DNA of 63,726 nt, the filler included, from Hausera hauseri (Eukaryota): assembly GCA_046269625.1 (NCBI GenBank). It is 13 parts of 13 records of this genome, joined end to end, with 100 filler letters (N's around TTAATTAATTAA, not from the genome) between each part and the next. Parts side by side here need not be neighbours in the genome. Positions count along the whole stretch, not along the records: positions 40,133 to 44,414 come from JBJURY010659774.1; 12 more parts are not named here. One strand, 5' to 3'. The notes beneath the pieces were generated by a model. It ran no database searches. It was not told the origin of the DNA and was given only the letters and a program-made list of their open reading frames with translations. Made by a program: the position numbers and the translations under genes. Positions 8,242 through 59,334 of the stretch are shown here, one piece after another; positions within the stretch are counted from its first letter, which is position 1, and the number at the start of each line of letters is the position of its first letter.

Positions 8242-8329
8242 TCGTTGAAGTGATTTTGGAAATAATGAAAAATATAGTAATATCATTATGTACTACTTCG
8301 CTTATTGATTGGTTTTAATACACTTTTGT

Positions 8330-15967: not shown

Positions 15968-16166
15968 AAAATGTCTAGATAATGTAAAGTGCGTCTAGAC
16001 AATGTCATCAAAATGGTGCAAATGGTGCATATAAAATGCCTAGACAATGTAAAGTGAGTCTAGCAATGTCAAAATGGTGTAAATGGTGCAAATAAAAATG
16101 TCTAGATAATGTAAAGTGCGTCTAGACAATGTCAAAATGGTGCAAATGGTGCATATAAAAATGCCT
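15968..16166. repeat. Tandem minisatellite, unit about 62-65 bp, three or more copies, cut by contig end
   Basis: aaaatgtctagataatgtaaagtgcgtctagacaatgtc...aaatggtgcaaatggtgcatat repeated. Confidence 0.85.
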
Positions 16167-25100: not shown

Positions 25101-25700
25101 TTTGTACATAAATATGTACCATATTGCTCTAAATTGACAGCACCATTTGCACACTTAAGCGGTGGCAAAAAACATCATCCAATACAGTGGACACCTCAAT
25201 TGGTTGATAAGTTTGATAAGCTACGCGAAGGAATTAAGACCGTCGACATTCTCGCTTTCCCCAAGCCTGATGTGGAACTCATCCTTACTACAGACGCTTC
25301 AACCACTGCAGTAGGTGCTGTACTCCACCAAATCCACAAAGGAGAATATCAACCTCTAGAATTTTTCTCTCGCAAGCTAACATCCCCTAAAACTAGATAC
25401 TCAACGTTTGATCGAAAATTCTTGGCTATCGTTCTTGCTTCAAAGCATTTCTGCCACCTACTTGTCGCTCGCCATTTTACCATACAGACCGATCACAAAC
25501 CCTTACTTAACATCATGACTATAAAATATCCTTCCACACGCCAAGAACGACAGATACCATACTTGTCGACATTTAACTTCGACATAAAACACATTAATGG
25601 GGTTAATAATTTAGTTGCTGACTTTTTATCTAGGTCGGTTAGTTCGATTAATTTTTCACCAATTTTTACGCGACCCCAACTTCAACAAAACCAACCTGTT
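22140..25700 (+). mobile_element. Ty3/Gypsy family A copy 2 (leader, gag, PR, RT, RH), degenerate, integrase missing
   Basis: gag MNSSPTIDTT... homologous to copy 1; FLIDTGAAIS; CGDYRQLN; YTDD; TDAS; TDHKPL; homology breaks off near 25700. Confidence 0.93.
23573..23614 (+). promoter_or_regulatory. Programmed -1 ribosomal frameshift signal (A_AAA_AAC plus putative pseudoknot) at the gag/pol junction
   Basis: gag frame CAA AAA AAC TAA; the pol frame is -1; 7-nt spacer, then GCCG/CGGC and GTTAGA/TCTGGC stems. Confidence 0.75.
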
Positions 25701-27578: not shown

Positions 27579-28653
27579 CATATAAAACCATTCGCCTCCA
27601 TATAGTAAATCTTGAAAGCCCAGAATCAACAACAGTCTTTGTCATTTTTAGTCATCAATAATAATTCTTTGTCAAATATATAACTTGACAAAACCTGGAA
27701 AAGAATTTATAAACCGACATACATTATACAAACAAACGAGTTTTTCTGTTCTCTTATTGTGCAACTGAATATTCAGCCTATCACCCAAAAGTTTCATCTG
27801 TTTAATTCTGTCATGGAAATGCGGATGAACACATTTTATTTTTCATTGTAGTTCACGGAATTGGTAACGGGAACAATAATCTCTTTGGATTTCTTGGGTC
27901 GATGCACTGGCATCCTTGCCAATTCAACTCCAAGACATAATCATATTCCAAATCAATTGCAATTCTGGATTAAATGACATCACCGAATACGCGCACTTGT
28001 TAACACGTTTTTGATTTGCTAATGTCTCCTTAATACTAACTCTTCGGTTACAAAATTTGTCAGGACACTTGAATTCCGCAACTGTGTCATTTAAAACACT
28101 CACATTTTCTTCCAGCTTCCCCTGTTTACTTTACCCAGTCATGAAGAATTTTCTATAATTTTTTGTCTAACTCGGCGTATGCACCAACATCTACTAGTCT
28201 TACATCATACCACAATTTCAAATTGACTCGATTTTTTACAAATCCATTTTGTTGGATGATCTTTCTTGACAATAGAGTCAACTTCACATAACGACTTTCT
28301 TACCTGCTTACAACTGGATCTTCATATTCTCTTTATCATTGCATAGACAATTCGTAACTTGTCAATGTACCAGATGAATTCCGATCAATGGACCACAAAT
28401 TGAAAATAGCCTGCAATTGGTAAATTCACTTTCCAACACTCGAACTGGTTCTTTTGTTATCATCCCATACTTGCCATATAATGTCATCAATATACGTGTC
28501 GGCTGTTCCAATGAAAACATATTAATCAAGTCGATAATCGAACCCAGATACAACTTTTAATTTTTGTTCTTTCGAACGTTATCAGTGCCAGATTGAACTT
28601 CCGAAAATTCAATTTTATATTTTCGCTAATTATTCTTAAGCATAAATATTTAG

Positions 28654-29266
28654 GAGTCTTATCAATCTTATGGTTTCTGGACCCGTTGTGGCGTTTGAAC
28701 TTATGCGAGATAACGCCATTGAAGCCTGGCGTGGTATGGTGGGACCAACTGATCCTTTAATTGCTAAAAGAGAGAACCCATTGACACTGAGAGCGAAATA
28801 TGGAATTGACATTGTTAGTAATGCACTCCATGTTGCCGATTCGCCCGATTCTGCTGCCAGAGAAATAGGTTTTTTCTTTCCAGACAACGATTGTTCTATT
28901 CCAAACACCGCTATATTTCATGACAGCACATGTGCTGTTATCAAACCACATTTAGTTGCTGAAGGTGGAGAATATTATAATGTAGTACGTATTGAATACT
29001 GTTTAGGTCGCGTTGGTGAAGTTATTGTATCCATTCTTAATGGTGGATTTGAAATAACCGCCATGGAAATGTACAACTTAGATAAAGCGAACGCTGAAGA
29101 ATTTTTGGAAGGCTATAAGGGTGTCTTAGCTGAATATCCAGCATTAGTGCAGGAACTTATTTCTGGACAATTTATTGCAATGGAAATAAGTGCGGGTCCT
29201 TGTTTGAAAGGTACACAAGTTCAGAAATCATTCAGAGATTTCGTAGGACCAATGTTTTCTATTTAG
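28654..29266 (+). pseudogene. NME7: Nucleoside diphosphate kinase 7 fragment (end of NDK domain A, most of domain B), with a 42-nt in-frame intron 28965..29006
   Basis: SGPVVAFEL...WRGMVGPTD...TLRAKYG...NALH...EIGFFF...TCAVIKPH...GFEITAMEM...EEFLEGYKGVL; homology ends abruptly at FRDFVGP. Confidence 0.88.
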
Positions 29267-29386
29267 TCTTGCGATGCGGAGTCTTCATCATCTAGCTTAT
29301 TTAACCCAGATAATTGTGTAATTGTGAATCAAGCCGAGCTATAAAAATTAGCTGCGGATTTACATGAAAGAAAGAAAAATTTTGAG

Positions 29387-30260
29387 ATGAAACAAAATGC
29401 TCTATCAAAGTTGCTTAAAATGCCTGTTGTTGACATTCAGCGTTGGGAAGTATTAGATCCTGGGCTGGTTGATTGTCTTAATAAACCTGAATTACACAGC
29501 CGAACAATTAAATTTATTAAGAAAGGTTTTTTATCAACTTCAATAAATGTCAGATATTTTTATTGTACTCTAGCTAGTCAACTAGAGTCAGTTTTCAAAG
29601 CAAAAGGTTTTCAAATGCAAGCTTTGAAAAAGGGTTTGGATATTCGACATTTGAGGACACTTGACAAATTAAGAAAAGCCGATAACTTAATTCCAGAGAC
29701 GAAAATTCTGTTTTCTGATTTGTATAGCTTAGACGACGCTAAAACAAAACTCCATAAACTATTTATCTGGCCAATAAAGTATCAATCGTTATTTGCCAAG
29801 TGTCCGATTAAGCTGCACCAAAGTCTTGCTTCCAGGTTGCGTAAAAGTCATCGTGCAGTTTCGTTGGCCAATGAAGTTAAAGTGAACTTTAAATTAACAA
29901 AGGGCCCAGAGTTACTAAATAAATATATTGTATCAAGGGAAGAGGAAGTTAGAAAATTCTTTGAGTTTTCTACAAGTATTCAACCGATTCTGCTCTTCTT
30001 TTATGAATTTGAAGCACTTGTTCCTATACGTGACCATGACAGTACGGGTGTTACGGATAGGGTGGTGAATTAGTTACTAACAAAAGACGACGTATTTCAA
30101 GTTTAAAACAGTCGAAAATTTTCATAATAGCTTGTTCAAACAGACCAGATCTTATTGATCCAGCTATATTAAGACCAGGAAGAATCAGTTTCAAAGTATA
30201 TTGCTCTCCTCTTACTAATTTTGTTAAAAGAGTCGAAGTTCTTGAATTTTTCTTGAAGAA
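29387..30260 (+). pseudogene. PEX1: Peroxin-1-like AAA ATPase D2 fragment; Walker A lost, internal stop and frameshift
   Basis: WPIKYQSLFAKCPIK, KGPELLNKYI, HDSTGVTDRVVN*LLT, SNRPDLIDPAILRPGR. Confidence 0.8.
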
Positions 30261-31367
30261 GTCCTGCTTATTTTTTGCAGAAGACTTTGAGGAACAGAAC
30301 AAATACTTGACCTTTAAAAATCCATACGAAAACAATCAACCGAAAATTACCGTACCTTCTCTTATTGATTGTAAAGTCAAATATGACGAATATAAACGAG
30401 GTTTTCTTGGGGTCATTGATAACCGAACTGTTTCGATTATAATTACAGACGTGGTCGAAAGCTAACGACTGCAAAGTCTAGGAGTGTTACAAGACGATAC
30501 AGACTTCAAAAATGATTTACTAAGTATCAATTGGAACATTTTGGATTTGATGACCATAGATTCAAAGTTCAGTGACGTAGCTATACCATTGAGTAGTATA
30601 CAAAATGTTAGTACAGTAAAAACAGTTATACTGAGGATAGTCGCTACGTAATATGCCATTATTTATGGAATGTTAACAAGCTTTCCTATCGACATTGGAG
30701 GTCTTTTACGTTTCGTGATACTTTTGAAATGCAACAACGGTAAAAGATGGTACATAGGTACCTTCCCACCAATATTTACGCCGAAGTAAAGAGAATTGAC
30801 GCTGGCCAAAGTTTGGGTATTGTAGTTTCTATTCGCTGCTTTAATTTTATTGAATTTATTACAGGGCTGTTTTGGCAGTATTGCATTTTATCTTTGTTTT
30901 TTGTGATTCCGTCCGTTTTCGGTCGTCTCGGATTTTTGAAATACAACTGCTATCTAGCGAAGGCGTTTTTTTGGTGACACATCTTGCTATCATTCTGGCA
31001 TTACTTCTGCCGCTCTTGGAATTCTAGATCATTTCAGCAAAACACCTCTTCTTTTCTTTATTCCTCAGGTCATAAATTTTGTCTATTCTATTTCACAGTT
31101 GTTTCGCTTTAGCTTTTGCCCACGACATAGTCTTCCGATATCTTATTACTGTTGATAAAATTACTCAGTCTACATCGAAATTTAGATTGGCTTCATTGGG
31201 AAAAATTGGTAAACTACGCTTTTACGTTCTGAAGTATTTGACACTCGTAGGAATTCGTGAACTCGGTNNNNNNNNNNNNNNNNNNNNNNNNNNNNNNNNN
31301 NNNNNNNNNNNTTAATTAATTAANNNNNNNNNNNNNNNNNNNNNNNNNNNNNNNNNNNNNNNNNNNN

Positions 31368-33960
31368 CTTAAGAAAAAGCCTGGCTCCAATGAGGAAATA
31401 GATTTAGAAGATCAAAAGATGCCGAAATGGTATCCTCCTCCACACTCGTTAAGACCGGAGATAACAAAAGAAGTAGGACGAATGTTAAAGGCCGACATAA
31501 TTAGACCGATCGTGGTACTGCTCTATACTCATGATTAAGAATAAAGGTACTACAAAGCATCGATTTTGTATTATTATCGAGCGTTAAACACACTTATGAT
31601 GAAAGATTCATTTTCACTACCATCGGTAAAAGAAGCCCTAGATTGGCTTTCCGGAGTAAAATGGTTCACCACACTTGATCTACAATCTGGATATTGGCAA
31701 GTGGAGATAGAGGAAGAAGACCGCTATAAAACTGCGTTTAAAACGCACGACGGTGTGTACGAATTCAACGTCACGCCATTCGGAATAACTACGGAGCTAA
31801 CAATTTTTACTCGAATGATGAATAAGATGTTAATGGGACTAGAACACGCGTTCGCATATATGGACGACGCGCCCAAAACGGAAGAAGAACATCTAAAGGA
31901 CATTGAGGACACGCTTATGCGGATAGAACAAGCCGGATTGAAATTGAATCTCAAGAAATGTAAACGGGCTCAAAACGTTGTTACTTATGTCGAACATATA
32001 GTTGGAGAAGGAGGATCAAAACCGGATAAATCACTGTTGAGTAAAATATCAGATTGTATGGAATCTCAAAATTTGAAAGAGTTAAGACATTGTTTAGGCT
32101 TGTGCGGATATTACGCCACTTATGTACCGGACAATTTAAAAATAAACGCACCCTTGTATCGCTTACTTAAAAGGGGAATTAAATGGAAATGGACTGATGT
32201 TGAACAAAAGGCTTTCGACGGAATGAAGAAAATCTTAACTAGCGAACCCGTTTTAAGATATCATGATTTTAACCTACCGTTCATAATTAAAACGTATGCA
32301 AGAAAAGAAGGCATTGGGTACGAGTTAGTTCAAAAACGAGAAGATGAAGAATTGGAACATCCGATCGCATACGGAGGGCGATCACTAAAGAAAACTGAGA
32401 AGAATTATTTTGTTACGGAATTAGAAACGTTAGATGTAAAAGAAGCTCTACGACACTTTAACGTATACTTCTACGGACAAAAGATTATAATTGTCACGGA
32501 TCATAAAGCGGATACAACCTTGAAAGGCAGAGCAAATAATCCGACATGTAGATTCAGCAGATGGATCGAAGAGATTTCATGATATAACATTGAATTTCAG
32601 TAAAAACCCAGAAGCAAACATGTCGATGCCGATGCGTTATCAAGGCTCAAAACCAAAACAAGCGCGATTACTGTAATGGGAAAAGCTCAACTCGAGGAAT
32701 TAGTGGATAGACAACAAGTTCTAACAATGGATAAAGCAATTAAAATTTCAAGTGAACAAAAGAAGGACAAAATTATACAACAAATCATCGAATTTGTCAA
32801 AAAAAAGATAACGCCAAAGGATCACCAACTACGAAAGCATTTGCAAAGACATGGTCATAAATACTGCGCAACAGGAGACACGAACCGCGGAAACGTATTG
32901 TATTATGAACGAAAAGGACGAAAATTAGTAGTTATACCAAAAGGACTACGTACAGAAGTACTAATGACCGAACACGACTCTTACTTAGCCGGACACACGT
33001 CATGGAAGAAGACATTAGAGAGAATATTAAATAAATATTATTGGCCGAGCGTTTACATTGACGCAAAGAATTTGGTGAATGCTTGCGAGGTATGAGCAAC
33101 CAAACAGAGAAAAGTGAAGAACTACATCACCGAACGTAAACCGATAAACGTGCCGGACAGACCAATGCAAGCAATGCCCATGGATATTGTAGGACCGTTA
33201 CCTACAACTCAAAAATAATAAGTATATTCTAACATGTGTAGATCGATTCACTCATTTTGTCGAGCTTATAGCATTGATGGACCAGAAGGCCGAAACTCTA
33301 GCAGAAGCCGTAGTAAGGAAGATTATCTGTAGATACATACCTCCTGAACAAATTTTGACAGACCGAGGAAGAAACTTTACAAGTGAACTCTGAGAAAATT
33401 ACCAAAATATTCCAGATTGAACGATTAACCACAACGGCTTACCATCCTCAATGCAACGGATTGGTTGAACGAATGAATGCAACAGTTATACGGATCTTAT
33501 CCACCGTGGTTGCGAAGGACCAGAAAGATTGGGACGAATTTTTAGAGGGCACACATTTTGCCATAAACACTACACCACATCCTGCAACAGGATTTACTCC
33601 ATTTTTATGATGTACGGCAGAGAAGCTGTATTACCCACGGATTTAGGAAGGATACCATATACAGTGAAAACGGAAGAGTTAGAGCGAAACTTTGTTGAAG
33701 TATTACAGATGAGACTGCACAAGTGTTGGGAAATAGCCAAAAAATTATCCAAAGAATATCAAGAACAATTTAAAAATCAATACTACAAGAAGGCTAAACC
33801 ACACGATCTAGAACAAGTAGATTGTGTTTATGTACACTATCCAGTAGCGTTAGAAAGGCACCTCTCTGAAACTCACTCGAACAGGCAGAGGCCCCTACGA
33901 AGTTGTGAGAACCACGCCAACTACAGTTCATATCAATAAAAATGGCAAAGAGGAAGTCAT
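31368..33960 (+). mobile_element. Ty3/Gypsy family B pol (RT-RH-IN), degenerate
   Basis: LDLQSGYWQV, KTAF, YMDD, TELETL, TDHK, HDSYLAGH, DIVGPLP, TDRGRNF, YHPQCNGLVERMN. Confidence 0.93.
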
Positions 33961-35547: not shown

Positions 35548-37170
35548 NNNNNNNNNNNNNNNNNNNNNNNNNNNNNNNNNNNNNNNNNNNNTTAATTAAT
35601 TAANNNNNNNNNNNNNNNNNNNNNNNNNNNNNNNNNNNNNNNNNNNNAAAAACTCAATTTTAGGCTGAAATATCCACTTATGTGACCAATAATCTGATCG
35701 TAGTCTTACTACTGGCAACTGACCATAGCACAAAATTACCAACCACTAAATTGCAAAAATAATAAAAGAACACGTGAGCAGGAACGATGAGCGTAACACA
35801 TCAGATCAATATGTTTTGAAAATTTTCTCTTTAAACAGACGCTAAATTATGTCAGAAATAACCGTTTACAGACTGAAGCAGAATACAGCCCAACATGGCA
35901 GGCCCACTGTATGTTGAAGACCAACTCAGCTCAGCTGCTCTGTTTGGTGACCCATTGTCTGTGTTACACCCTCAGCCTACAATGATCAGAATTTTATAAC
36001 CTTTTTAAATCGGACAAACTGGAACCCAAAACAAAAGCAGAATTGATAGCATCTGGCATCCTCTTTTTTCCACAGCAGAAAAAAATGTCCTTTGTGTGTC
36101 ACTTTTCTGTTGCCACTCACCGAAAGCAGACTGTGGCTCTCAAGTATTTTGGATGGAAAAAGCAAGTGAGTGATGCATTCATGAGCATTCAGGAAAACTA
36201 AACTAAAAGTGTAATTTATGGTATGCAGAAAATTGAGGTTTTCAAAATAAATGTTTATCTATCTTTACAATAGAGCAATGTTCATATCTCACATGGGATA
36301 GCCCCAGTTGCAGGGGTGAAATTCCTACACCGCAATGCAAATAAGTAAGATCATCAACTTTGGTATCATTTGTTGAAAATCACTCACCAGTATCAGCTTG
36401 TACTCTTTTTTCCAAAATGGCTGTCGACCTCTCATTGAGTTCAACATCTTTTGGTGGGTTACATTTGTATCCTTAAAAAAGGTTAAAAAAGAAGGACATT
36501 GTTAAGCCTTGTGTAGGCATAAGTCAAACTCTAATTGTATTAGTTCTGGTGTGAAAGGGCCCTTTGTCTTTGAGAAGTGTTTGTTTTGTTTTTAACAAAC
36601 CAGTTTTTTAATTGGGGAGTAGCTTTACCATGACCAGGTGTTAAAAAAATCATAACAATGGTGTGGCCCAAACAAGCAACCTCTTATAAAATTTCTAAGG
36701 CAGTTTATTTACGGGTTCAATGCAACCAGGCAGTCTGACATGCAAAAGTGGCAGTCAATTATTGTACACAAGATCTGACACACGTAACCATACAATTTTC
36801 AAACGCTTGTCATCTCACAGTTTGCTGTCTTACCTGCTATGCAGCTTCTAAAAAGACCCCAATTAAATATATGCTGCAACGGCATTATGTCATCCTGACT
36901 GCTTGGTCTAGTCTCAAAAGTGTTGTGTGAAGGCGGACCAAACTCAATAGCAGCTTATCACTTTCCTTCAATAAAAGGCTACTTCTTTTGCCAGATCACA
37001 GTTGTTAAAAAAATTTCTTAATCTGTCTTCCTGGTTAAATCAAAAAAAAAAAAAAAAAAACTTGAATTTGTCAGTATTCCATTGTCCAATTGAAATAACT
37101 CCCCCAGACCCCCCTGGTGTGAAAATCCCATTAATTTCCTGGAGGAAAATAATTAAGGAAAAATACATAC

Positions 37171-39075
37171 CTAAGACAACAGAGTCCAGAGTCTTCAAAT
37201 TTTTCCCTTTCAGGGATTCAGCACCACTCTCCAATGCAAACAGAAGTTTTCCGATTTTGGCTACCTGGAAAGTCTTGTCTGTTTGGCGATAATAATCACA
37301 ATGTACTCGTATGTCATGTCCCATGAAACGAGCCACTTGTTCTAGTTCTTGATTATTGAGGTCCAGCAGCTGACACAGAGTAGCAACATGTTTCCTTAGT
37401 TTTGTTGAGCGAAGCAGTTCGGGATTGCTTGCCTTGCTGTCTTCAGCAAACTTTCTCAAACAGTCACAGCCACGGATGTTTGTCATTGTCCCAATCCTTG
37501 CGAACACAAATGGGTTTTCATCAAGCACACCAGCTTCTCTTCGCATTTTTATTAATAAATCAAGAGATGCCTTTGTGCGTTCTGTCAGGAGAATAGGCAC
37601 TTTACGCCCTCTCTTTCCACGAGTAAGTATTCGAGTAAGCCTATGACTCATTTGTTGTTCCACTGGTGAGAGAGTCTCGTATATGTCCTTGTTAATTGGG
37701 CCAGTGTCTGCTTTCATATATGTTTCCAAGGTCAAGCGTGATGCTTCTCCTTCACGCTTTTTGTTAAACACAATGATTTGTGCAAGAAGGCTTTCACTTA
37801 GCATTTTGTATGCTGTAGTACTTGCACACTTCTGCAGCTCATCTTTTGCTTCATTCTCTTTTTTTTGCAAGTAATTCTGCAGTATGATAATATCCTCTGT
37901 CAGAGGGACACAGTCTTCTTTGTTCCACTTTCTTTGTTCCATGGTACTATGAGCATTTGCTGCCACATAGCTTGACCAAGAACGATCTAGCAGCTCCTTA
38001 AATTTCTTTGCCTTCTTCTCTGTCAAAACATCTGATGCCATTAAGCAATGTCCAATCCAAGCTTCAGTAGCCCCCTTCAAAGAAAATCCAATTTTAACAG
38101 CAGTAGATGGCTTCCCATACTCTGAAGTGCTCGTTGTGTAGTCAGAAACTTTTCTTGCAGCTTCAATGGCTACCTTGAATTTTTGAGGATCGCACAGATC
38201 CTTAAGACCTTTAACAGTCTTATCAAGATCTTTGGCAGCTACCAAAAGCCTCCCAAGTTCTCTCATTTTCTGAGTTATATAGACATGTTGGGATTGCTCT
38301 CGTCCTTTTTTTGCAAATAATGCATTGCCATAATTACAAATCATCTCATCATTTCTGATGTTTGAGGTCACCTCATCCTGCATCATATTGTGGAATAGGT
38401 CTTGTAATCCCTTATTAGATTGACAGAATGGAAGCAGAAAGGAGGACGCTTTTTGGATTCGTTTTTTTATACCATTCTTGTTTTCACGCTTGGTGCCGCT
38501 CTCCTGCTCTTCAGTGCAGTTCCTGCAAGTCTTCTCATGTCGCCAAAGTTCTTTTCGCCTGAGCATCGCATAACAGTGTTGGCAGGGCAAATAATCTTCT
38601 ATGTGTGCCTTTTTTGATAGTCTTTTCCATGTTACAATTTCACCATTTCCTGCTTCTAAAACTTGTTTATTGTGTTCCCAGTCACCCTTATTTCGAAGAA
38701 CTTCCAACAGCATCTTTCGCCTTTTGGAGCCAGTTGGAAAGCTGAAAGCATATGCGACCTCTGACTCATCCACATGTTTGCACTCCAGATGTCGTGCCAT
38801 CTTTAATTTGGCCTGTTTGCAATATAAACAATAATGGGCTTTGTCCCATCTTCTTCCGCCATCAGTTTCTTTGGTTGCATTGACTGTTATTTCATGCTTT
38901 CTTCTTCTTTTGTCTTGTTTGTTTAATGGCACTGTATGTTTGTGTTTAGCTTTTTTGTTTGTCTGCTGGATGGATGGCATAGGCTTCATCAAGGTCATGT
39001 CTTCATCACTGGATGAAGGACTCGCCGACGGTTGGTACTCTTTATCTGAGTTGCTGTTGCTCGAGAGTTCTGTGT
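37171..39075 (-). CDS. Large intact exon of a Crypton-like tyrosine recombinase with N-terminal Zn-finger motifs; small flanking exons near 39977..39919 and 36472..36389
   Basis: Catalytic-type motifs NKKREGE, RGKRGRKVP, STKLRK, FMGH, DYY; CLYC..RHLE..H and CQHC..RHEKTC. Acceptor ttttcag at 39076-39082; donor gtatgt at 37170. Confidence 0.82.
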
Positions 39076-40132
39076 CTGAAAAAAGTTAAATTGTTCATTG
39101 TACTCGTTTAAAATCACAATGAGCATATGACTCTCTTTTAGGAGGTATACACCAAAGTGGTTTCAGTGCAAAATGCTGTTTCTACGGTCAGTTCTTTAAA
39201 ATAACCAGCTGGTTTTAAACAGAGCAACCTCAGTGCCCTGTAATCACAACACTTGACCTATTTGTTACATCTTAAGTTTTGGCTTGATATCACCATAAAC
39301 ATTTCTAAAACAATTTATATGTTTTAAAAGATGATTAAAGTTGTTGGGAAGGTATAGTGCAGGTGAAGGATACCTGAAGTTTTTTTGTTTTCAGTTTGGA
39401 GATTGTTCAAGTGAAGGATGTTTGCAGTTATTTTGTACTTTTTAAAATATGTGGGAGATATAATTTTTTAAAAATGTTTTAATAAATTGTTGTTCTGCAC
39501 CCTTTTCATTCAATGTTGTTTTCTTTCTGGTGAATTTGTTTTATTTTGTCCCATTGATCCTCCAAACATGTGTTAAGGTGAGCAACAGGATATAATTATG
39601 GTTCTCATTAATACTTTTTCAACATGTGGTCTCTGGCAGATCAGTCCAGTATCGGCATTCTCAGATAGCCATGCCTTTGCAATGTATGCAGCAAAAAATG
39701 CTGATGTTCTGACGGCAGCATATGTTGCTTTAAAATTTTAATACTTGCCATTATAAAAGAGTAAATAGGCTTTTGCCAGAGGCGCTGAAACGACCCATCA
39801 CAGATCCCAGCCTTTTGGATATGTTACTCTTTTTACTTTTGTTTGGATTTTGCTGAGTCATGTTTCTCCCTTATTAGTTTTGCTTTACTTTAATAAAGTC
39901 GTTTTGGTCTCCATCACCTGCCTTCCTCTTTCACCAACTTCTCAAAGTTGACTATATCCTCCAGGTTTGGGACAAATCTGTAATGACAGAAAGAAAGCTT
40001 CATTAAAATATGACAAGATTTCAATGACAGATNNNNNNNNNNNNNNNNNNNNNNNNNNNNNNNNNNNNNNNNNNNNTTAATTAATTAANNNNNNNNNNNN
40101 NNNNNNNNNNNNNNNNNNNNNNNNNNNNNNNN

Positions 40133-41065
40133 GACGAGATATTGTTTATTCGAACATTTGCCATGTGGACGTAGAATTTCCTAAATACGATATACGTCGG
40201 GTTTCTGGGACAGTACTTGCAGTTACCTTTTGTAGAATTTACCGTGTATTTCCTCACCGTTTTCATCCTCTAAAACGTACATGACAAGTGTTTGTTTTGT
40301 GTTGATTGCCGAAATGCAGAAAAGCTCGTCGCTTCAGTTCCGATTGAAATTCTTAATGAATGGCTTTGTACTTATTTTTGAGATACGTACGTAAGCACCG
40401 ATTTTAAATTTTTGGCGCTGAATTGCCTGTGGTTGTGTTTGGTTTTGATAAAGTCACATGTCCAAAACATCGATTACATCCACCGGCCGTAATCCATCGA
40501 TCCCACGATGTGTCGAATGATTGCATGCATGAATAATATTCGGCAGTAGATCTACCCAGCGTTTGTTTCCTTGCTTCGTAAAGAATTTATTCAGGCGACC
40601 GTGCAATGTTCGATTAAATTGTTCAACCAGTGCAGCCTTTTATTTAGAAAACAACGAGTAGTGGTTTACGCCGAACTGTTTCAAGACAGCTGCAACGTGA
40701 GCGTTGTAGAATTCCTTACCCAAATCCGTTTGTAAATTCTTCGATTGTTGTTATTGTTGTATCAGTGTCTGAACAGCGTCAGTATATCTTTACCGGATTT
40801 AGATTTCACAGCAGTTGCACGTGCAAAACGACTAAACTCATCAATACATGTCAGTGCGTACCGACACCCATCGTTAATGCTGGCGTACGGAATCATTTCC
40901 ATCAGATCCATTTGCCATACGTTATTTACACCTGCAGCACAATATGCTATCTGTTTCCCGAGTTGACATTGAGTCTGTTTTTGAGTCTGTTTGACAGTCT
41001 TTGCCAGTTTGTCGACGCCAGTATACCCGACTGAATGAGGCGGGTCGAACCACACGTGGCTCATG
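40133..41065 (-). pseudogene. Polinton retroviral-like (rve) integrase
   Basis: WFDPPHSVGYTG, VWQMDLMEM, LTCIDEFSRFA, LQTDLGKEFYN, VEQFNRTL. Confidence 0.9.
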
Positions 41066-41202
41066 GTTGTCGTCGATGATGTCGTTTTGTTAGCATTACA
41101 GCAATTAGAAAACAACTTAAACGAAAGATTCGGTAAACTTGGGCAAAATGGTGAAAACCATGCACCCATATCGACGAATCATCATATACTTACCGTCATT
41201 GT

Positions 41203-41538
41203 TTATACTATGATGCTGCTGTAGAACCAATGAGTCCATCCAGTAATGACGTGACAATCAAAAGAATATGTACCAAGTAATTCTCCATCTTGTTGGTACA
41301 TGACCTCTCGTTTCAGTCGTTTACTACGATTGTTGGCAAAGCCAATGAGTCGTTTTCGATACCTTAGTAAATTTCGCTTCCCACTTCCAATATTAACGTA
41401 ACCCACAAAGATATTGTACAAAATTTCTACTAAATTGTCTACCAAAAACTGTGGGAATGATCGTAGCATGTTTCGCTTATGTCTCTTAGGTGCCTTAAGC
41501 AAAGAAATAATGTACGGCTGACTACATTTGAACCGCAT
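41203..41538 (-). pseudogene. Conserved small basic Polinton/adintovirus protein ('gasderminX'/core-like), 3' frameshifted
   Basis: LVEILYNIFVGYVNI...RYRKRL...KRLKREVMYQQDG pattern, located between ATPase and integrase. Confidence 0.6.
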
Positions 41539-41791
41539 TTTTATTGACGTTTTGATGCTGATGAGACGTAATTATTTATAGCCGTTGCCACTGAGACGAT
41601 AATTTGCTTTTAGCTATTGTTAGAAGCACAGAATTGATTAATCGCTTGACTGTAGCGGTTCATTTTGATACACGTTTCTTGCCGGGCACCCACTTGGTAG
41701 GTTTAGTTTAACAATTATTTTTCGGAAATTCTTCATTTTATCACAATCATGTCGTCGATTTTCAAATTTGTTTATAGACATATACACCTTT

Positions 41792-42403
41792 CTAATTGAA
41801 AATGTTTCTTTCTACACGCATGTCATCGAAAAACTGTTGTGTAAAGTCAGTGAACAAGTATCCGTGTTGCTCGGCCGTAGCATCATGATATGCATCTATC
41901 ATGTAGGCTCGATTGTGAGGAAATGCTTGTCGTAAGAAATAATCAATGATAGTCTGATCACGGGGATTTTTGAACAACACCAAATAATGTACGTTTAGAT
42001 TTTTTGTTCGATGCTGTCCGCCCTGATGGAACATATTTTGCGTAAGTAAAATAGCCGTCACATTACGGTGTTGTGCAATCTTCATGAACAGGTTGTTGAA
42101 GTCGGTTTGTTTCGTTGCCTTTTAAACTAAATCGTCAATAAAAATAACGTCACCGTGGCGTAATCCTTTAGAGCAGTTCTCATCAAACCCATAAATTACC
42201 GTTATCGATTTCAGTTTACAAAATTTCCGATGTGTCAAACCGGACTTTCCATTATTACCACTGCCCTGATGCCAGTACATATGATTGAACAGCGGCGATT
42301 GGTATATGTCACGGTAGTTCTGCAGCAGTTTGCAAACAAAGTGCGTTTTGCCACTTCCACGGGGGCCTACAATCTGGAAAATGGCACAAATCTGCAGCTT
42401 CAT
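41792..42403 (-). pseudogene. Polinton A32/FtsK-like packaging ATPase, split
   Basis: Walker A GPRGSGKT, Walker B IFIDDL, HRNVTAILLTQN, LNVHYLVLFKNPRD. Confidence 0.92.
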
Positions 42404-42484
42404 GTCGTTGGTGATGCATTTTCAATACATTTTGTTTATAATTACACACAAATAAAATTAAGTGCAGCACGAACATTGTTTTAA

Positions 42485-42990
42485 TCATTCATTATAGTAA
42501 ATATCAACTACCGCAGATATGTTATTGAGTGTATTAATGCACTGACGTTTGATCATTGGAAGCTGTCACAATATGCCCACAAATGTTCACTGGATGTTAC
42601 GTGCATCATATTTCCATCGGGAAAGTGTCGCATAATGAGCTGTCGCATACCAATCACAGCTGACAACAATAACAGTAAACTACTGCCATTCGGAATTGTC
42701 ATTGACCAAATTTAGTCATTAACGGTAACGACTCAGTTAGTCTACCAAACAATCAATCTGTACAAATTAGCAATGGCCACTGAATGTACGTATGAACCCG
42801 AACTGTTTCCAACACTGAGTCTGACATCGTTTTGCACACTTTTTATCAATATGTTTAGCAGTGAAAAATTGTTATACTCGGTATTCGAACAGTGGACTAT
42901 GAACCGATTATTAATTAAATTAAAAACCATAAAAATGTTTTAATGAATCAAAATAATGTGCTCTTTACAACAACAGCAAACTATAAATAA
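42485..42990 (+). pseudogene. TATA-binding protein (TBP)-like gene within the Polinton; one stop and one frameshift
   Basis: Manual translation: IVNIN...TCIIFPSGKCRIM...QI*SLTVT...INLYKLA...YEPELFPTL...INMFSS(fs)KIVILGIR. Both TBP repeats are represented. Confidence 0.78.
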
Positions 42991-43780
42991 CATTCCCATG
43001 CTCATTCAGACTTTACTGCCATGGAAGAAAACGACAACAAAATGATTCTACTCAATGATGGTAGTGAGAATGATTGTTCGTGGTTGTTTGGCTACAAAAA
43101 GGACAATTCTAATATCAAATTGCTGGAAACGAAAACAGAACCTGTCTAACAAGGAGAAAAATCGGGTGATTGTCTGCAAGTCGATTATCTGGAAACAAAA
43201 ATGGAACTTGCTCAGAAATCAGCAGTAGCAAAGCCGACGTTAAAAAGGCAAATGGCAATGATTGAAATACGTAAACAAAAATTAAAATCGTCGCGCGAAA
43301 CACAGAAATTTACAGAAACGAATTTTTCTCAAGAATAAAATGCATTTTATGCAAACGCCCGTACTGATTTCATTAAATGGTCCCATGTTTCTATGCGTAC
43401 ACAGGTACAGCTATTGTGTAAAACGGCTTTCGGATGAAAACTTGGTAGACTTTTTGATGCTCTACATCAATTAAACGTGGATTTGAAGTTGAACAAAACG
43501 AGCATGCAACAGCAGTCTGTCGATTTACCGGCTCAGAAAACAAAATTGTTTGATTTTATCGGTCGCGAAATGTCTCATACCCGATAATGATGATGGTAGT
43601 TAAAATGTCGACTGAATATTGAATTGCAAGGATACAAGTAAAAAGTCGGTATCAAAACTCCGATTTGTCGTGTAGCTGAAACACATTTTATTTATCAATG
43701 AATTACGTTGTTTTGTTTTACCGTTTTCTTTCGTTAACCCAATTAACGAGTATAAATATACGTGTAATTTGAATATGTAA

Positions 43781-44260
43781 ATGAGAATAATGATAATGAA
43801 TGATGTAAAGATTGTCTTAGCAGACGAAAATGCCTTTGTATCGAGACGTGTTACAGCAAACAGTGCAGGCTATGATGTGGTTTCCAATGTCAATACGACA
43901 ATTTCGGACAGCACAATCAAATGCATAACGACTGGGATTTAATTGGCAATTTCACCCGGTTACTAAGGCCAACTTTTATCGAAAATCGGACTGGCAAAGC
44001 TCGGACTAACGGTTGTGGGTGGTGTCATTGATTCAGACTTTCGTGGTGAAATTCAGGTGTTGCTGGAAAACCAATCCGGGAAACCGTATGCTTTCTCAAA
44101 AGGCAATGCAATCGCACAAATCGTTTTTCTTCGATGTGAAGAGGCGCAATTCAGTTTCATGTCACCGGAACAATGGGGATTGTTTTGCGTCAATGAAACA
44201 ACACGAAATGAACGCAAAGAATTTGGCTTTGGTGATATGGACAAAGCCACCTATGTTTAG
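43781..44260 (+). pseudogene. dut: dUTPase, two in-frame stops
   Basis: SAGYDV, GQLLSKIGLA, GVIDSDFRGEI, IAQIV, R..EFG motifs. Confidence 0.92.
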
Positions 44261-44342
44261 TGATTGTGACGATAATAATAATAATAATGGTAAGTTATTT
44301 TTTTGTGTTATAAACAAAAAATGATTTTGTACATGATAAACA

Positions 44343-44414
44343 ATGGCGACAGGATTTATAGATATTGAAGCTTTCAAAAATGATAATGCCCGGTACCTAA
44401 TAAAGGAATTATGC
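44343..44414 (+). CDS. Start of a DEDD-exonuclease-like Polinton ORF (truncated)
   Basis: MATGFIDIEAFKNDNARYLIKELC (DxE ... KEL). Confidence 0.5.
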
Positions 44415-44586
44415 NNNNNNNNNNNNNNNNNNNNNNNNNNNNNNNNNNNNNNNNNNNNTTAATTAATTAANNNNNNNNNNNNNNNNNNNNNNNNNNNNNN
44501 NNNNNNNNNNNNNNAATATGAACCATGGAATAAGGTTTGCCAGAAATGGGCCCAGCAAACCATGTGAGACAAGGACGAATTTATTA

Positions 44587-44784
44587 TTAAAATATTATGT
44601 TAATGTTCTAACAAATGGTAGCAGAACGTGGTTCCGATCCACGAGACTACCAGTTAATTATTATGTTATGTTTCCAACAAATGGTAGCAGAGAGTGGTTT
44701 CGATCCACGATGCTATCATTTATATATTTTGATATTGTTTCAACAAATGGTAGCAGAGCGTGGTTCCGATCCACGAGGCTACCA
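44587..44784. repeat. Three 66-bp tandem units, each with a ~28-nt segment antisense to the initiator tRNA-Met 3' end
   Basis: TGGTAGCAGAGCGTGGTT(T/C)CGATCCACG variants at 44616, 44682, 44748. Confidence 0.85.
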
Positions 44785-45536
44785 CTTAAATACTATTTAA
44801 ATCCCCCAACCTAAACGAATTGGTCATATAATTATTGTGATTATGTTATTGTTCTAACAGTGTATTTATACTTTATTCGTATTATCTGTATGTGTTCTTG
44901 TGTAAACATACGTGCATTGTAATCAGTGAGAAATTCATGAATTTATGATGAAGGAAATACTTTGTGTATGTCAGTTTTCAGAAATCAAACTGTTTTGCCT
45001 TCACACAATATAAACATGCCGGCATTTTATCGCTGTCTTGCATCGAACAAATTTCTTTCGACATTATCTATATTTGCATGGCGGAGTTGCTTACATTCAA
45101 TAGTTGAACAAACTTATTTTACTTACGCGTATACTTCATTGATATGTTATCATTTTTATGCGTACTGACGTTTGAATTTTACTGATCGATGCATTATTTA
45201 CTTCAAGTATATACTCAAGTGTACTTACTAAATGTATGTAAAGTGGCAATTTTATTTTCATATTAGAGACATTCTAGAATCTGTTTGTGCTGCTGCCTGA
45301 AATTTCAAATACTTTGGAATCCATTCATGATTGATGGATGTTCATGTGCATATGTACAAGAAATAAATAAATTGTTTAAGTGTAAAAAAATTGTAAAAAA
45401 TTAATACTTTTGAATTTGTTCTGGCCATATTGGCATTTTCATTGTTTTGTAGGTGTTGTTCGATATTCTTTTTCAGAGAATTTTGGAGGATATAAAACAA
45501 AGTTTTGTTTGCCATTTTTTCTTTAAATGTTAGACT

Positions 45537-49024: not shown

Positions 49025-49699
49025 ATGAATTCTAGTGAAGCTGCTGCAAGTCAACCACGATACAATCAGTATTCAGTAAGAACGTCTCGGTTGTACAATG
49101 GCTACAAATTTGACTACCTACAAACGCCCATTCAATTGTCATTGGCGCAACCGGTCAAATTCAAAGAGGTAAAATACGGTGATTTGGATACGGTGGAACG
49201 TACGCTGAAAACGTCTACAGTGATTTGGTGTTTTTCAATGACATTCGGGACACATCATCACTTTTTCTCAAGGGCAATATGAAAAATATTGTCCGTTCAA
49301 GTGATGATGAAACAACAACAACAATAGAAGCGACGACGTTGCTATCCGAAGGTGCTAAAGGCTATCTAACACTGAAATTGAAAGGCTACAAAGAACTTCG
49401 GGGTGTTAAATCGCCAATGTGGAAATTGGGTAAATTTAGTTTGATTTGACTTGCCTTTTGTGTTTTATGATTAATAAATTATTGATTTTACGTTTCTCTT
49501 AATTTGTTATTTTTATTAAATACTTTACATAATAATACGTTAAATTCAAAAGACAAAACAAAATACGTGGAACAAATATACATTATTTACAAAAATCAAA
49601 TAACATCGAGTGTCATAGTTTATAAATTGTACTGATCTGACTGCCTTCGTCTGAGCTGTCTGACTATGCATGTGCTTTACTTCAACCACCAATGCCTAT

Positions 49700-52600
49700 A
49701 CGCCCAACTCTTATTTCGCCCCACCCATTTTCGATTGTCATCGTTGCATGACAAAGCAACCTTCTTATTTGTTATGGTATACAGCTAATGCTCAATCGAT
49801 CGTATGGTCGTTTGAGACACACCAGACTTTCCTTCTCCGTCTTCTTGTCCATCATAGACGCGGCGATAATTACCGTGATTTATTTCCGTGGGCCCGCATT
49901 TTCGGCCCACAGTCCGTCAGAAGACTGTAACACTTTTGGCGCAAAAATATCCATTCCCTGTATTGAACCCGGCCTTCACTTTTGTCCTTGAAGCAGCCGA
50001 TTTTGTTTGTTATCGCGCTGCTGTACAGTGGATGGTTCTGCGGGTAGTTGGACGTGTCCGGTAGTCCATCTGACATCATTTGTCGGAGCAGCTGGTTTCA
50101 ATTAATGTTTTTCAGCTGAAGGAAAAAGCTGTTTGTGTCATCGGCAACGATACTGATCTCACAGCCGCCGCCGCCAAACATTTGCCGGTAACGTCCCAAG
50201 TCGCGATACTGGAGCTCGTACATTCGCAACGTGCTCAGGTCCAATACCACTTGTCCGATGTAACTTGGCCGGTCCAGTACAACTTATTCCCGGTTTAGAA
50301 GCACGGCGACAAATCCATCGGCAATGTGCAATGACCGCCTAAATTGAGTCTTGCTGGTGTACGTAACCAGTCGTTTTTCGTTGTTGCACAGGCGCACATT
50401 AAGCCACTTCTTCAGATTTTCCACTGTTTACCCGTACAGTGAATTGTTTTTGAGCTTGTAATAGTCCTTTTCGAACTTTGTACAAGCTGCGGCTCGTTTT
50501 TCTGAATTTCCATCAATGTATGCCTTGAATTTCGGCGCCTGATTGAATTTGATTGCTTGATGCAGCTGTGTGATGCGTATACCGAGCTGTATGTGGAACT
50601 GTAGCAGACACCAATGGACCACGTAATTCAGCTTCGGTTCATGCGTCATGAGCAGTTTCTTCACTTTTGAGCCTGGCGGACATTGGTTAAATGATGCGAC
50701 CGGTAAATCGTCCAAAACGTTATGCAGCTCATCTGGTATCTCGAGATCGACCTCCATCAGGTATCCGACTGAGCCTGCCATGTCTGTTTGTGGTAGGTTG
50801 ACCATTATGTCATCCAGATTTTGTCTGTAGACGACCCATTCAATTGAACCGTACGGCAAGGTTTGCGAAAGCGCCCAGCCGTACAGGTTGTTAATATCAA
50901 TATACAGCAGTGATGTGATATGTGTAGCACTGACCTGATGCTTGTTGACAAATGTCATGCCACCGCGAATACCAACATCAAACAGCCGGTACATTTCCGA
51001 GTCTTGCAGCAGCTCAGCGTCTCCATCCAGTGACATTAGAGCTGATGCCAAACTCATTCCCGATATGGAATAAAAGTTAAGTGGCTCTAACCTATCTTCT
51101 GCCAGTGCTTTGGTCCGATATGCTTCGAACACGTCGGCTAATAAGTACACGCCCAGTTTAAGATACTGGATCATGTAATTCAACATGTTTCTACAGCCCA
51201 GTTCTGTCCAAGATTTTTGTGCTCTCCGATATTCATCTTCTGCGATACTTGTCAATCGCGGCGATAATTCCTTTGCTGTCCGGAGTCGCCTATCTGATGT
51301 TGCAAAGTCATGGAAATATGCCTTTGCTGCGTACAATATGTGCAGGGAACTGCGTCAGTGCTAGCGACACATCTGGCAAGGCATTTACCAGCTTTGTTAG
51401 AGATTCATTGAGAAATTGCAATGAATCAAGGAAGCGTACCTGGAATCGGTTTACTTATGCCGACAGCGATAGGTATTTCTCCATTGTCGTTGGGATTATG
51501 GGCAGTTCCCAGTGCGGAAAGCCGTTAATGGCCCATTTGAGTATATGGTGACAATCATAACCTCTGAAATTATGAAAGATCACCGGCAGGAATGGTCGCA
51601 CTCGCCTTGCTAAATTGCATGAATTTCATGCTGCTCCCAAGTATCGACCGGTGAAATGATCGTGATCCGGTACGAGCCGTTCCTGTGCATCAAAACGTAT
51701 TATTTTGTGGCACAGATAGCATTCATCGGTGACATCGAAGAGCAACGGTTCATATTCGTCTGCCCAAATCAATGGGTTATTGCAATTGTTGCGATACCAT
51801 GGTGCGATTTCCGTTTCCACTATGATTTCCAACTGCTGTAGAAAATCACGTACACAGTTCCAACCATGGAAAACATAATACTGCGGTTGTCCGGCGACTT
51901 TTATTGGTACTAGCAACATACCGACAGTAATTGGAACGTACTTTTGATCGTATACATTATGTCGTGGTAGAAATGCTTCGATATCGGCATGCACCACATA
52001 TGCAGGACTGTCCGTTTTTGATCAGTCACTGAATCTCAACTCATTTTTGACGGGCATAACATACATTGAGGTTCCTGACGAAGTTTGTCTGCACAGCGCC
52101 ACATGATTTTCCCATGTATCATTTGACCGAAATCCATGCAGACACACGGGACACCCCTTGCACCGTATACGCTTTTTGATGAACTGGTCATGCTTCGTGT
52201 TCAACAATCTGTTAAATTGGTCACGGCCGTGTAATAAAACTTTTCTTCATTCTCCAACAGCAACAAATTTACTGGGCGTCCAAACTGGATTTCGACTGCG
52301 GTAAATTATGTCCACGTGAGGATTCTTGTAAATTTCCTAATCCACCGGTATCTCTACGATTGTGCTGAACCGGAACACGTTGATTGCCAATGTCGGATTA
52401 CGCCATTCAAAAGCCGGAATGGTTTTGAGTTCCATCGGCATCCAACACTCATCGTAGTCCAATTCTGAGAAATACCGCCAGCGACTGCTTCAAGAACATC
52501 CGGACACATGTCACTCGTCTTGGTCAGAATAAAGCCGAGTGGCAATCTTTGAAATTCGCCAACCACTGCCATTTTCGGTATATTTGGCGATTTTTTCGTC

Positions 52601-53513
52601 AAGCCTTTCCCCTACATCGTCAATAAAATCCTCAGAGTATGGTACGGCTCGATGTGACAGGTACCATTGTTTCCTTTCACCCTGCAAATTTTCAAATTTT
52701 GCAAGTGCATAATATTGAACTTTGCAATGGTGTTATTGGAGTTTGGCCACCTCTGATTCCAACCGGTTACGCACATTAGCAGTTACATCCTTCAATTGCG
52801 TTGCTGTTTTCACCGAAATGTCCACCTTCATGTCCGCGTAAGATTTGTGCAGGCCGTACTTGACAGTAAAGGAGTGTTCACGTTCCTGCTGCTGCAGCTG
52901 TTTCTGACTTCTGTTGTTTTGAAAGTATTCGTCAAGGCTTGCTGATGCTTGACGCTTCCTGCTGCTTCTTGCTGCGTCCATTAATATTTCCTTTTTGGAC
53001 CTCTGAGACTAGCTCAAGTGGTCCTTGTGGTTCTTGTAGAATTGTTCATAATTGACTTGCGTCTCAACTATAGAATAACTGGGACATACATAGGCCCGTT
53101 TACAATGCACCATTGTGGTTGTTGTTCTTTTGTACCATAGTACTGCTACATTGAACTATGGCAACCATCAACGTCATACACCTTACAAGTACAGTAACAT
53201 GGGTGTGGGGCAATGCACATGCATCATCTTGGACCATGTGAGCGGACCGAGATGATGTTTGTGCATCTCATAAAAGTCGTGGTACGGGCATATGCTTTGA
53301 ATAAAACACACGAGACACAGGTACGTGTCCTTGGACACTGAATAATATTTGGCCATTTCCTTGTGACATTGTCCACCCTCATGCATGCGGGAGACGCAAT
53401 ACATGGGATATTGCCAACATTTCTGAATGAAAAACAAATGAAAGTAAATGTTAAACGGAAACAAATAAAAATGTATTAATTATAAATAAATAAATTTAAC
53501 TACAATACACCAT
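49700..53513 (-). pseudogene. Near full-length degenerate Polinton group-2 pPolB (family divergent from the copies in contigs 1 and 2)
   Basis: VHADIEA, DHDHFTGRYLGAA, FHNFRGYDCH, YLLADVFEAYR, GIRGG, YIDINNLYGWAL, YYKLKNNSLYGK, IGCFKDKSEG; Cys/His repeat region at 53000-53420. Confidence 0.92.
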
Positions 53514-57897: not shown

Positions 57898-59334
57898 TTT
57901 TTTTTTTTAAATAAATATAACTGTTAATCATGTGATTAACATATTTATAATTTTTTTTTTATCATGTAACTGTTAATCATGTGATTAACATAGATAAGAT
58001 TTTTTTTTTACAATATTTACAAGCTAACTCTGCCATATGCAGATAGAGAGAGATTGGATTCTTGTTTGCTATTCTTTTAAACAGAGAGACATTTTGGGTC
58101 TTTTTCTATTTTCAGCCCAGGAGGGCACGTAGTCCGGTATTTCTGCGACGATCTCATTAGGGAGGTCAAAAAGTGTATCATAGAATTTTTTTGCAAGTTT
58201 GCGTATTCTTTCTGGGAGAGAGGTCGTTTTCAGGTCCCGGCGAATTGTTGTATTCCGTAAGTAGCGGCTGCCGTCCCTAATATATCTAAGTGTTTTGTTA
58301 TGGAAACCTTTCATTTTTCTTATATTTGATTGGCAAACGAAGCCCCATACTGGGCATGCATATGTAAGGATGGGGAGGATACAGGAGTTATATAATAGTA
58401 TTTTATTTTTTCGGTTTAGATCTTTTCCTAGTAAGAGACATTTGAGGGCTTTGTACATGCCGATTGCTTTGGCAAAGACATTTTTGAGGTGCTTGTTCCA
58501 CGTTAGTCTTCTGTCCATGGTGACTCCGAGGTAGCAAGTGTCATTGTCCCATTCAATGGGGGTGTTGTTGATTATTATTCTGCTTGGGGCGATCGTTTTG
58601 AATGAGAAAAATACTGCTTTGCATTTATCTTCGTTTAATTTTATGCGCCAACGGTTACACCATTGCGTGAATTTTTCTACATGTTTTTGAAGGTTTCGTG
58701 CCAGGTAATTAGTGTTTTTACTTTTTGCTAGGATGGCGGTATCGTCCGCGTACAGTGCGAGGGAAGTATTTTCCGAGCGGGGGATATCATTAAAATAAAT
58801 GTTGAATAAGGTTGGGCCTAGCACCGAACCCTGAAGGATTCCTGAACTGATTGGTTTTGTGTTGGAGAGCGTGTTATTGATTCTAACATAGAACTGCCTA
58901 TCGGTGAGATATGAGTGTGTGAGTTTTATGATGTTTTCAGGGAGTTGAAGTTTTATCATTTTGTATATTAATGCGTTATGTTCGATCTTGTCAAAGGCCT
59001 TGTAAATATCCATAAATACCGCACCTACGGGGGTTTTACTCTGGAGGCCCGATGAGATGTATTCAACCACTCTTAGGAGTTGGTGTACAGTAGAATGTTT
59101 ATGCCGGAACCCGAATTGTTCCGGGATAATTACATTTTGTATTTCTAGGTGCTCGTGAAGTCTTTTGATAATTATTCTTTCAGTTATCTTTGCAATAGCT
59201 GGGAGGAGGCTGATTGGCCTATAGTTGGATGGAATTTGAGGGTTAGTGTTTGGTTTGGGGATAGGTGCAATTATTGACGTTTTCCATACTTTAGGAAAGT
59301 AGTTTAGCTCAAGGATACCATTTATTATACAGGA
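57898..59334 (-). mobile_element. Non-LTR (LINE, Jockey/I-like) retrotransposon 3' end: RT, 3' UTR, poly(A)
   Basis: Frame open from the contig end to 58069: NYRPISLL, QFGFR, DIYKAFD, QGSVLGP, YADD, YLG; A tracts downstream. Confidence 0.93.

Follow-up and report, generated by a model that had tools for sequence, protein, structure and literature searches.

Viral counterparts to TATA-binding protein (TBP) have been described from herpesviruses, namely EBV BcRF1, KSHV ORF24 and CMV UL87. The accessible parts of PMC4893493 and PMC12529657 present these vTBPs as TBP-fold proteins with a polar DNA face that work with host Pol II at a one-base variant of the TATA box (TATT) in front of structural genes, features that recur in, or are proposed for, the Polinton-encoded protein and promoters reported here. 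KSHV ORF24 has 752 aa, belongs to a six-protein complex (five partners), has all four phenylalanines and is without the TFIIB glutamates (PMC12529657, accessible part). The Polinton protein, in contrast, is a single domain of 145-170 aa with the glutamates kept, a proline at F99 and YATAAACR as its predicted box, and no partner genes were seen. BcRF1 is a weak structural match to it (E 5e-3).

Cellular TBPs (eukaryotic and archaeal, PF00352) share with the Polinton protein the saddle fold and the residues N69, F116, F190, P191, F207, E186 and E188. Identity between the two is 21-26%, and the Polinton proteins differ in their long separate stem and in having no N-terminal extension; the short form also differs in a rewired DNA face, the absence of the H2 basic patch and the loss of both N-lobe helices. 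The TBP-like proteins of nucleocytoviruses are likewise viral and divergent and have lost the N-lobe regulatory signature, and according to the accessible part of PMC7221094 these viruses mostly have their own TFIIB, with variable stirrup acids (about 40% at C.L3.2). Their structural matches to the Polinton TBP begin at E 1e-7, at 9-19% identity.

Adintoviruses, Mavericks and Polintons (Starrett et al. 2021, PMC8502044, accessible part) share with the relatives studied here PolB, the rve integrase, an FtsK-like ATPase, the adenain protease, a double-jelly-roll capsid look-alike and PLA2. TBP occurs in the accessible part of that paper only as a label in the legend of Fig. 5, in the section on MELD viruses from non-animal data sets, where it marks a TBP-like gene on a virus map, as it does in the preprint, and a TBP family, its distribution or a promoter is not described there. 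The text and supplement of PMC10748475 do not mention TATA, TBP or promoter, and four searched supplements of PMC7221094 gave no Polinton match; PMC8097293 and PMC10748475 likewise yielded no matching element DNA in which the motif could be counted. No description of a Polinton TBP family or of its box was found in a literature search that lay mostly outside subscription papers, and the family is apparently undescribed so far.

The TBP-like gene and its contig

The window, i.e. the whole stretch of DNA analysed (63,726 nucleotides), consists of 13 unplaced contigs, and each linker between them is a 12-base all-frame stop flanked by two 44-N runs. Because these contigs are unrelated, only the 4.3-kb contig at 40133-44414 is the real neighbourhood of the TBP-like gene. 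The features of this contig, and of one further contig with a PolB gene, are as follows; "early" and "late" are names given by gene function, and L numbers denote loci of relatives.

40133..41085, minus strand: retrovirus-like (rve) integrase, truncated at the contig end and carrying five stops plus a frameshift (Pfam rve, E 2e-5)
41200..41207, minus strand: late-type box that precedes by 38 nt a small ORF (cluster C36) leading into the integrase
41269..41544, minus strand: small conserved protein, cluster C11 (43% to L010, E 3e-24), presumably resembling a pX-type core protein
41769..41776, minus strand: late-type box that precedes by 40 nt a small basic ORF
41768..42403, minus strand: A32/FtsK-like packaging ATPase with two stops (60% to the L001 ATPase, E 1e-83; the L001-type family matches Pox_A32)
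42433..42440, minus strand: late-type box TATAAACA that precedes the ATPase ATG by 37 nt and lies in a divergent spacer with no upstream gene on its strand
42451..42490, plus strand: probable remains of an early promoter for the TBP-like gene, with initiator-like TCATT twice (-6, -2)
42491..42990, plus strand: broken Polinton TBP-like gene, short form (PF00352, tblastn with intact relatives, family profile)
43021..43554, plus strand: decayed ORFs, preceded by a canonical TATA at -39 and an initiator at -19
43793..44260, plus strand: dUTPase with two stops and a canonical TATA upstream (Pfam dUTPase, E 6e-14)
44309..44414, plus strand: late-type box that precedes by 35 nt an ORF start, the ORF being cut by the contig end and presumably DEDD-like
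49659..52723, minus strand, separate contig (48940-54154): decayed protein-primed PolB (Pfam DNA_pol_B_2; 52% to the PolB of the TBP-bearing L012)

The gene at 42491..42990 is a decayed member of a Polinton-encoded family of TBP-fold proteins. Translation of 42485-42865 (127 codons, X at the TAG) scored 24.7 bits against PF00352 (cut-off 22.9, E 2e-5), and the family profile matched the gene at E 1.5e-29. An intact 160-aa protein matched the read-through at 67% identity (E 1.6e-43), and in tblastn searches intact relatives matched both pieces of the copy, in two frames, at 62-75% identity. Compared alone with solved structures, the window copy had TBPs as its top matches, below significance (E 0.12). 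It deviates at 6 of 22 near-invariant columns, the maximum among 181 short-form relatives being 5.

An earlier note on this DNA had described a two-repeat TBP core, head-to-head with the packaging ATPase, carrying one TAG and one frameshift. Six-frame translation recovered its motifs IIFPSGK and YEPELFP in one plus frame and KIVILG in another, and 87 bases separate the ATPase ATG (42403, minus strand) from the first codon aligned with the start of the relatives (42491). The TAG (42713) and the frameshift (about 42865-42874) are both present; to these must be added a second in-frame stop at 42916 and the absence of a start codon at the position where the relatives begin. TBP homology was borne out by the PF00352 score and by the TBP fold modelled for a relative, in which the first repeat is without both of its helices, so that the description of a two-repeat core holds in part. 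The comparison with the decay of the neighbours was apt, as the stops listed above for the ATPase and the integrase show. The copy is a relic that decayed together with its element, and is almost certainly inactive.

In the promoter remnant a perfect TATA is absent, and an AT-rich near match was seen by eye about 40 nt upstream. Within the decayed ORFs at 43021..43554, the second part matched, at 43319-43444 (E 3e-4), the profile of cluster C2, which often adjoins the TBP gene. Clusters C2 and C17 were observed in loci L001-L053 as small conserved neighbours of the TBP gene that have no late box and gave no library match; both presumably resemble OB-fold single-strand binding proteins (SSB-like).

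The presence of an rve integrase and a packaging ATPase on one contig is a Polinton/adintovirus feature. The PolB at 49659..52723 probably comes from the same element family, and its contig also carries cluster C14 behind a late-type box. Capsid proteins and protease gave no profile match within the window. In a public run, which is perhaps not independent of the window, 29,076 short contigs were 80-100% alike to the TBP contig and covered all of its 30 bins, the TBP gene included, so that the element family must be highly repeated in that run; no piece spans the whole stretch. A further 23,099 short contigs of the run matched the PolB contig. From the element type, the host is inferred to be an animal.

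Relatives and predicted fold

A first search for relatives yielded 7 accepted proteins among 10 candidates (best 67% identity), and a profile search yielded 754 proteins among 2303 candidates, the best 120 of the 754 all being 131-224 aa long and carrying PF00352. Clustered sequences gave 363 clusters at E up to 1e-10. Both counts, 754 and 363, include some cellular TBPs, and 10 of 150 listed clusters were set aside as cellular. Taxon assignments for the family, based on 1-8 members, were left out of account. Four intact relatives scored 48-64 bits against PF00352; P0003 and P0004 are the closest relatives of the window copy. Metagenomes yielded 78 loci, 72 of which were kept after 6 were dropped as cellular-type.

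A Polinton core gene was present in 34 of the 72 loci, in 24 of the 32 of at least 3 kb, and in all 7 of at least 7 kb. The remaining 8 loci of at least 3 kb carry accessory genes found beside the TBP gene elsewhere. Neighbours include the Pox_A32 ATPase, rve, PolB, adenain (Peptidase_C5) and PLA2, with PolB linked to the TBP-like gene in L012, L023, L055, L056, L058 and L059. A capsid candidate of the relatives is a double-jelly-roll look-alike at a score of 0.98, and the capsid profile gave no match against solved structures; the penton-like genes are presumed to be such, in part from their position. Gene order varies, the TBP gene lying before the ATPase, head-to-head with it or after the protease. 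Among 69 ORFs from the loci, no locus being a complete element, there was no match to a TFIIB or polymerase family, and PHROGs gave no useful name for any of 14 proteins.

In loci L055-L067 a long form of the Polinton TBP was observed, in elements with PLA2, KilA-N and zinc-finger genes. Searches of prokaryote genomes returned only archaeal and stray eukaryotic TBPs plus one misbinned Polinton, and viral contigs held no family member (0 of 9 stretches; 5 loci, all with other TBPs); Polintons sought in viral contigs by ATPase, capsid and PolB numbered 0 of 49, 0 of 59 and 0 of 106. Longer or fused forms and animal TBPs were absent among 7997 candidates, which is weak evidence. Locus L084 (JANOGQ010000345.1) is a Polinton contig with a capsid, a protease-like ORF and a TBP-like gene in a bacterial MAG, probably as a binning contaminant. 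The 5.8-Mb bacterial-MAG contig of L096 (G001:C2) carries a fungal-type TBP and TFIIB and is therefore probably a eukaryotic chromosome, and L094, L095, L108 and L100 are divergent eukaryote-like TBPs in marine bacterial MAGs, possibly on giant-virus contigs.

In a 92-row tree the family lay on one side of a branch with SH-aLRT 97 (short form 98). In a 49-row tree built by a careful method, with one long viral row left out and the family thinned, the family received 100/100 on a stem of 1.42 and the short form 79/80; a sister relation to the nucleocytovirus TBPs was unsupported there. The window copy pairs with P0003. The eukaryotic rows are plant-, fungus- and protist-like, animal TBP, TRF2 and TRF3 being absent, and within that sampling the claim that the protein stands apart from host-type TBP agrees with the 100/100 branch. 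A processed host pseudogene or one-off capture was rejected on the same branch and on the Polinton context (24/32 loci), which upholds the earlier view of an element-encoded gene. The dN/dS proposed as a check had a median of 0.19 over 42 related, non-independent pairs, compared with 0.015 over 3 ATPase pairs, a value that indicates purifying selection on the TBP-like family.

Structures were predicted for intact relatives rather than for the window copy, and the models make the intact protein a two-lobed TBP saddle. The model of P0003 (short form; pLDDT 96) has all ten strands and is without the N-lobe helices. It matched TBPs in Foldseek at E 2e-8 and aligned with human TBP over 145 residues (Z 13.1, rmsd 2.7), the first non-TBP row having Z 6.3. 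The model of a long form keeps both N-lobe helices (Z 18.5, rmsd 2.4, 161 aligned). The core is 114 residues long in the short forms (181 proteins) and 132 in the long forms (37 proteins), compared with 139-141 for cellular TBPs.

Residues are given in yeast numbering, with the DNA-facing positions taken from Table 1 of PMC12529657 and model residue 1 corresponding to yeast 66. The stirrup acids are numbered 184/188 in that paper; counting from F190 gives 186/188. Short forms retain all seven residues named above as shared with cellular TBPs, and by sequence comparison 172 of 181 short forms have both E186 and E188, as do 28 of 37 long forms. Three of the four intercalating phenylalanines are kept (F116, F190, F207), the fourth being replaced in F99P (176/181). 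In the N-lobe of the short forms V122R occurs in 179, T124M in 181 and V71N in 173 of 181 proteins, and further swaps are L205N (181), V203C (179) and I194R (174). N159S and V161T are also typical, and each of the nine swaps is found in 81-100% of short forms. The canonical hydrophobic floor that reads TATA is not retained, with V71, V122, N159, V161 and L205 replaced, and the basic H2 patch is absent from the short form (1 K/R vs 5). By these alignments the DNA-reading face is rewired and near-invariant. According to the accessible parts of the sources, I194, V203 and L205 are specificity-changing positions of TBPm3 (PMC1636458), and in KSHV ORF24 positions 122, 124, 161 and 205 are likewise polar (PMC12529657). 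Ravarani et al. tie the stirrup acids to TFIIB and place the contacts of TAF1, TFIIA, Mot1 and Brf on the basic N-lobe helix (PMC7221094, accessible part).

The YATAAACR box and its probable reader

Upstream regions of the loci were dereplicated to 233, and as every locus was collected via its TBP-like gene, box counts refer to TBP-bearing elements alone. ATAAACA was the top 7-mer, found in 89 of the 233 regions (7.4 expected, 4 antisense), and TATAAAC and CATAAAC were also among the top 7-mers. Of 41 ATPase, penton-like and capsid genes, 36 had YATAAACR in their upstream 120 nt, compared with 0 of 48 TBP genes, a difference whose Fisher P of 7e-20 is overstated because the promoters are related by descent. 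With wider classes, drawn after the data had been seen, the box preceded 84 of 98 late-type and 4 of 83 early-type genes. The TBP genes themselves have a perfect TATA in 20 and a CCAAT in 16 of 48 cases. An initiator followed the canonical TATA in 20 of 32 promoters and the box in 3 of 63.

Box sites preceded an ORF start in 118 of 168 cases (loci of at least 3 kb), compared with 2-32% for six related variant patterns. When annotation was disregarded, an ORF-opening ATG lay 32-46 nt downstream of the box 94 times and 12-31 nt downstream of it 10 times (193 sites). An edge at 32 nt would be expected if transcription had to begin some 30 nt past a TATA-type box; 10 of 89 boxes lie just 7-11 nt before the ATG. 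In the long-form loci (L055-L067) boxes begin with C more often (24/42 vs 9/51). All four boxes of the TBP contig are in sense orientation; the ATPase, the basic ORF, the integrase leader and the presumed DEDD-like ORF each follow their box at 35-40 nt, and the box is absent there before the TBP-like gene and the dUTPase. This count (4 vs 1.3 expected) was reached in 83 of 2000 shuffles and is weak alone; over the whole window the box is unenriched (22 vs 17.4).

It is considered probable that the intact protein is a viral TBP made early, through which host TFIIB and Pol II are brought to late promoters, in the manner of the herpesvirus vTBPs. The protein likely works like a vTBP without being one, as a TBP homologue that is not a canonical TBP. 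Under this proposal host TFIID would transcribe the TBP-like gene early from CCAAT/TATA/initiator promoters, and the product is then predicted to bind the YATAAACR box, whose C at position 7 would be poorly suited to host TBP. The N-lobe faces the second half of the TATA box, where YATAAACR has its C, and C at that position was selected against with TBPm3 (PMC1636458, accessible part). Polar N-lobe residues would read the C end of the box, with V71N, F99P, V122R and T124M as candidate readers. The kept glutamates would recruit host TFIIB, so that Pol II starts on packaging, capsid and integrase genes without TAFs, and loss of the basic N-lobe helix may free the factor from TAF1, TFIIA, Mot1 and Brf1. 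TFIIB would set the start about 30 nt downstream, giving very short leaders.

Several observations count against this reading. The implied leaders, at 2-8 nt, are very short. A perfect TATA is present in only 20 of 48 TBP genes, and the 10 boxes close to the ATG and the weak counts in the window, given above, also speak against it. The C-lobe positions that have changed most face the nearly canonical first half of the box, and proline replaces one of the four intercalating phenylalanines. As TATAAAC differs from the canonical TATA by one base, host TBP might serve the box, and as BcRF1 binds TATA and TATT alike in vitro (PMC4893493, accessible part), specificity may need a partner.

The first of the alternatives, that the protein is a decoy or a host shut-off factor, which titrates TFIIB or blocks the TATA promoters of the host, and that the box is read by host TBP or another factor, appears unlikely. 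It would account for the TFIIB-contact glutamates being kept while the N-lobe regulatory surfaces are gone, for the proline at F99, and for the single base by which the box differs from canonical TATA. A pure TFIIB sponge would not, however, need an invariant, rewired DNA face, and if host TFIID reads the box, the strict C at position 7 and the missing initiator (3/63) go unexplained. The earlier note had left a choice between redirection of Pol II to the promoters of the element and a TBP decoy; the former is favoured because a matching non-canonical box precedes packaging and capsid genes.

The same two glutamates also contact Brf1 and Brf2 (PMC7221094, accessible part), and the gene often adjoins the ATPase or replication-type genes, so the protein might use Brf-type TFIIB paralogues (Pol III), or bend DNA for replication, integration or packaging, and be no Pol II factor. 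This is distinctly improbable: according to the same source the basic N-lobe helix, absent from the short form, is required by Brf1 as well. The box, moreover, precedes long protein-coding genes in T-rich DNA, and box sites lie before genes throughout the elements.

It is very improbable that a host forkhead-type factor reads the box, or that the box is a variant poly(A) signal of the upstream gene, and that the TBP-like gene has some other role. ATAAACA presumably resembles a forkhead-type site, and likeness of sequence speaks for either identity, as does, for a poly(A) signal, the overlap of 13 of 89 boxes with the preceding stop codon. The strict orientation and spacing of the box argue against both. 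As a forkhead site the box was rejected on GTAAACA, which preceded a start in only 8 of 40 cases. Near gene ends the box was found in 1 of 47 cases when the next gene was early-type and in 36 of 76 when it was late-type; the box thus tracks the next gene and not the previous one, and the poly(A) signal was rejected for this dependence. Furthermore, 17 of 89 boxes have no upstream gene, 36 of 89 lie inside the previous ORF, and the ATPase box of the window lies in a divergent spacer.

In favour of a helper-virus motif, Polinton-like viruses and virophages have been described that share promoter motifs with giant viruses; against it, no helper is known, to our knowledge, for animal Polintons. 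That the box is, as in virophages, a start motif for the RNA polymerase of a co-infecting helper virus into which the TBP-like protein plugs is barely credible, given that the hard 32-nt edge fits a TATA-to-start ruler rather than initiation inside the motif and that the glutamates are host-type, unlike those of most giant-virus TBPs (PMC7221094, accessible part).

Polintons are without an RNA polymerase, and an early viral TBP acting on late promoters bears on how the timing of their capsid and packaging genes is set, and on whether they still live as viruses. If true, a late factor of their own, paired with its own box, would argue strongly for a viral cycle, and would represent a separate invention of the herpesvirus vTBP strategy with the TFIIB handle retained. 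The broader proposal, for which belief and doubt are evenly balanced, is that a large branch of animal Polintons runs a genuinely viral early-to-late programme by a single factor of 150 residues, the smallest TBP, consisting of a DNA saddle and a TFIIB handle with its own box and bypassing TFIID and its regulators, as a one-protein orthogonal Pol II promoter system. With one small protein and one 8-base box the system is directly testable, and factor and box could become an orthogonal promoter tool. Comparison of the long and short forms shows which parts of TBP can be shed.

Other contigs of the window

Two contigs, at 1-5100 and 5201-10185, have segments 70-86% alike and carry parts of another, more distant element of the PolB type (24-39% to Polinton PolBs), in which no ATPase or capsid match was found. 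An intact 681-aa ORF at 37040-39085 (minus strand) has no significant Pfam match, and its C-terminal part presumably resembles a tyrosine-recombinase-type (Crypton-like) domain. Gypsy-type and other reverse-transcriptase elements, several of them frameshifted, occupy 16485-18751, 22204-25757, 31545-33939 and 58069-59382. A host-like NDK exon region and an ORF matching BROMI and AAA lie at 28646-30465, apparently intron-poor or retroposed. Short tandem arrays occur at contig ends, at 44575-44796 (period 66 nt) and 15968-16166 (period about 62 nt).
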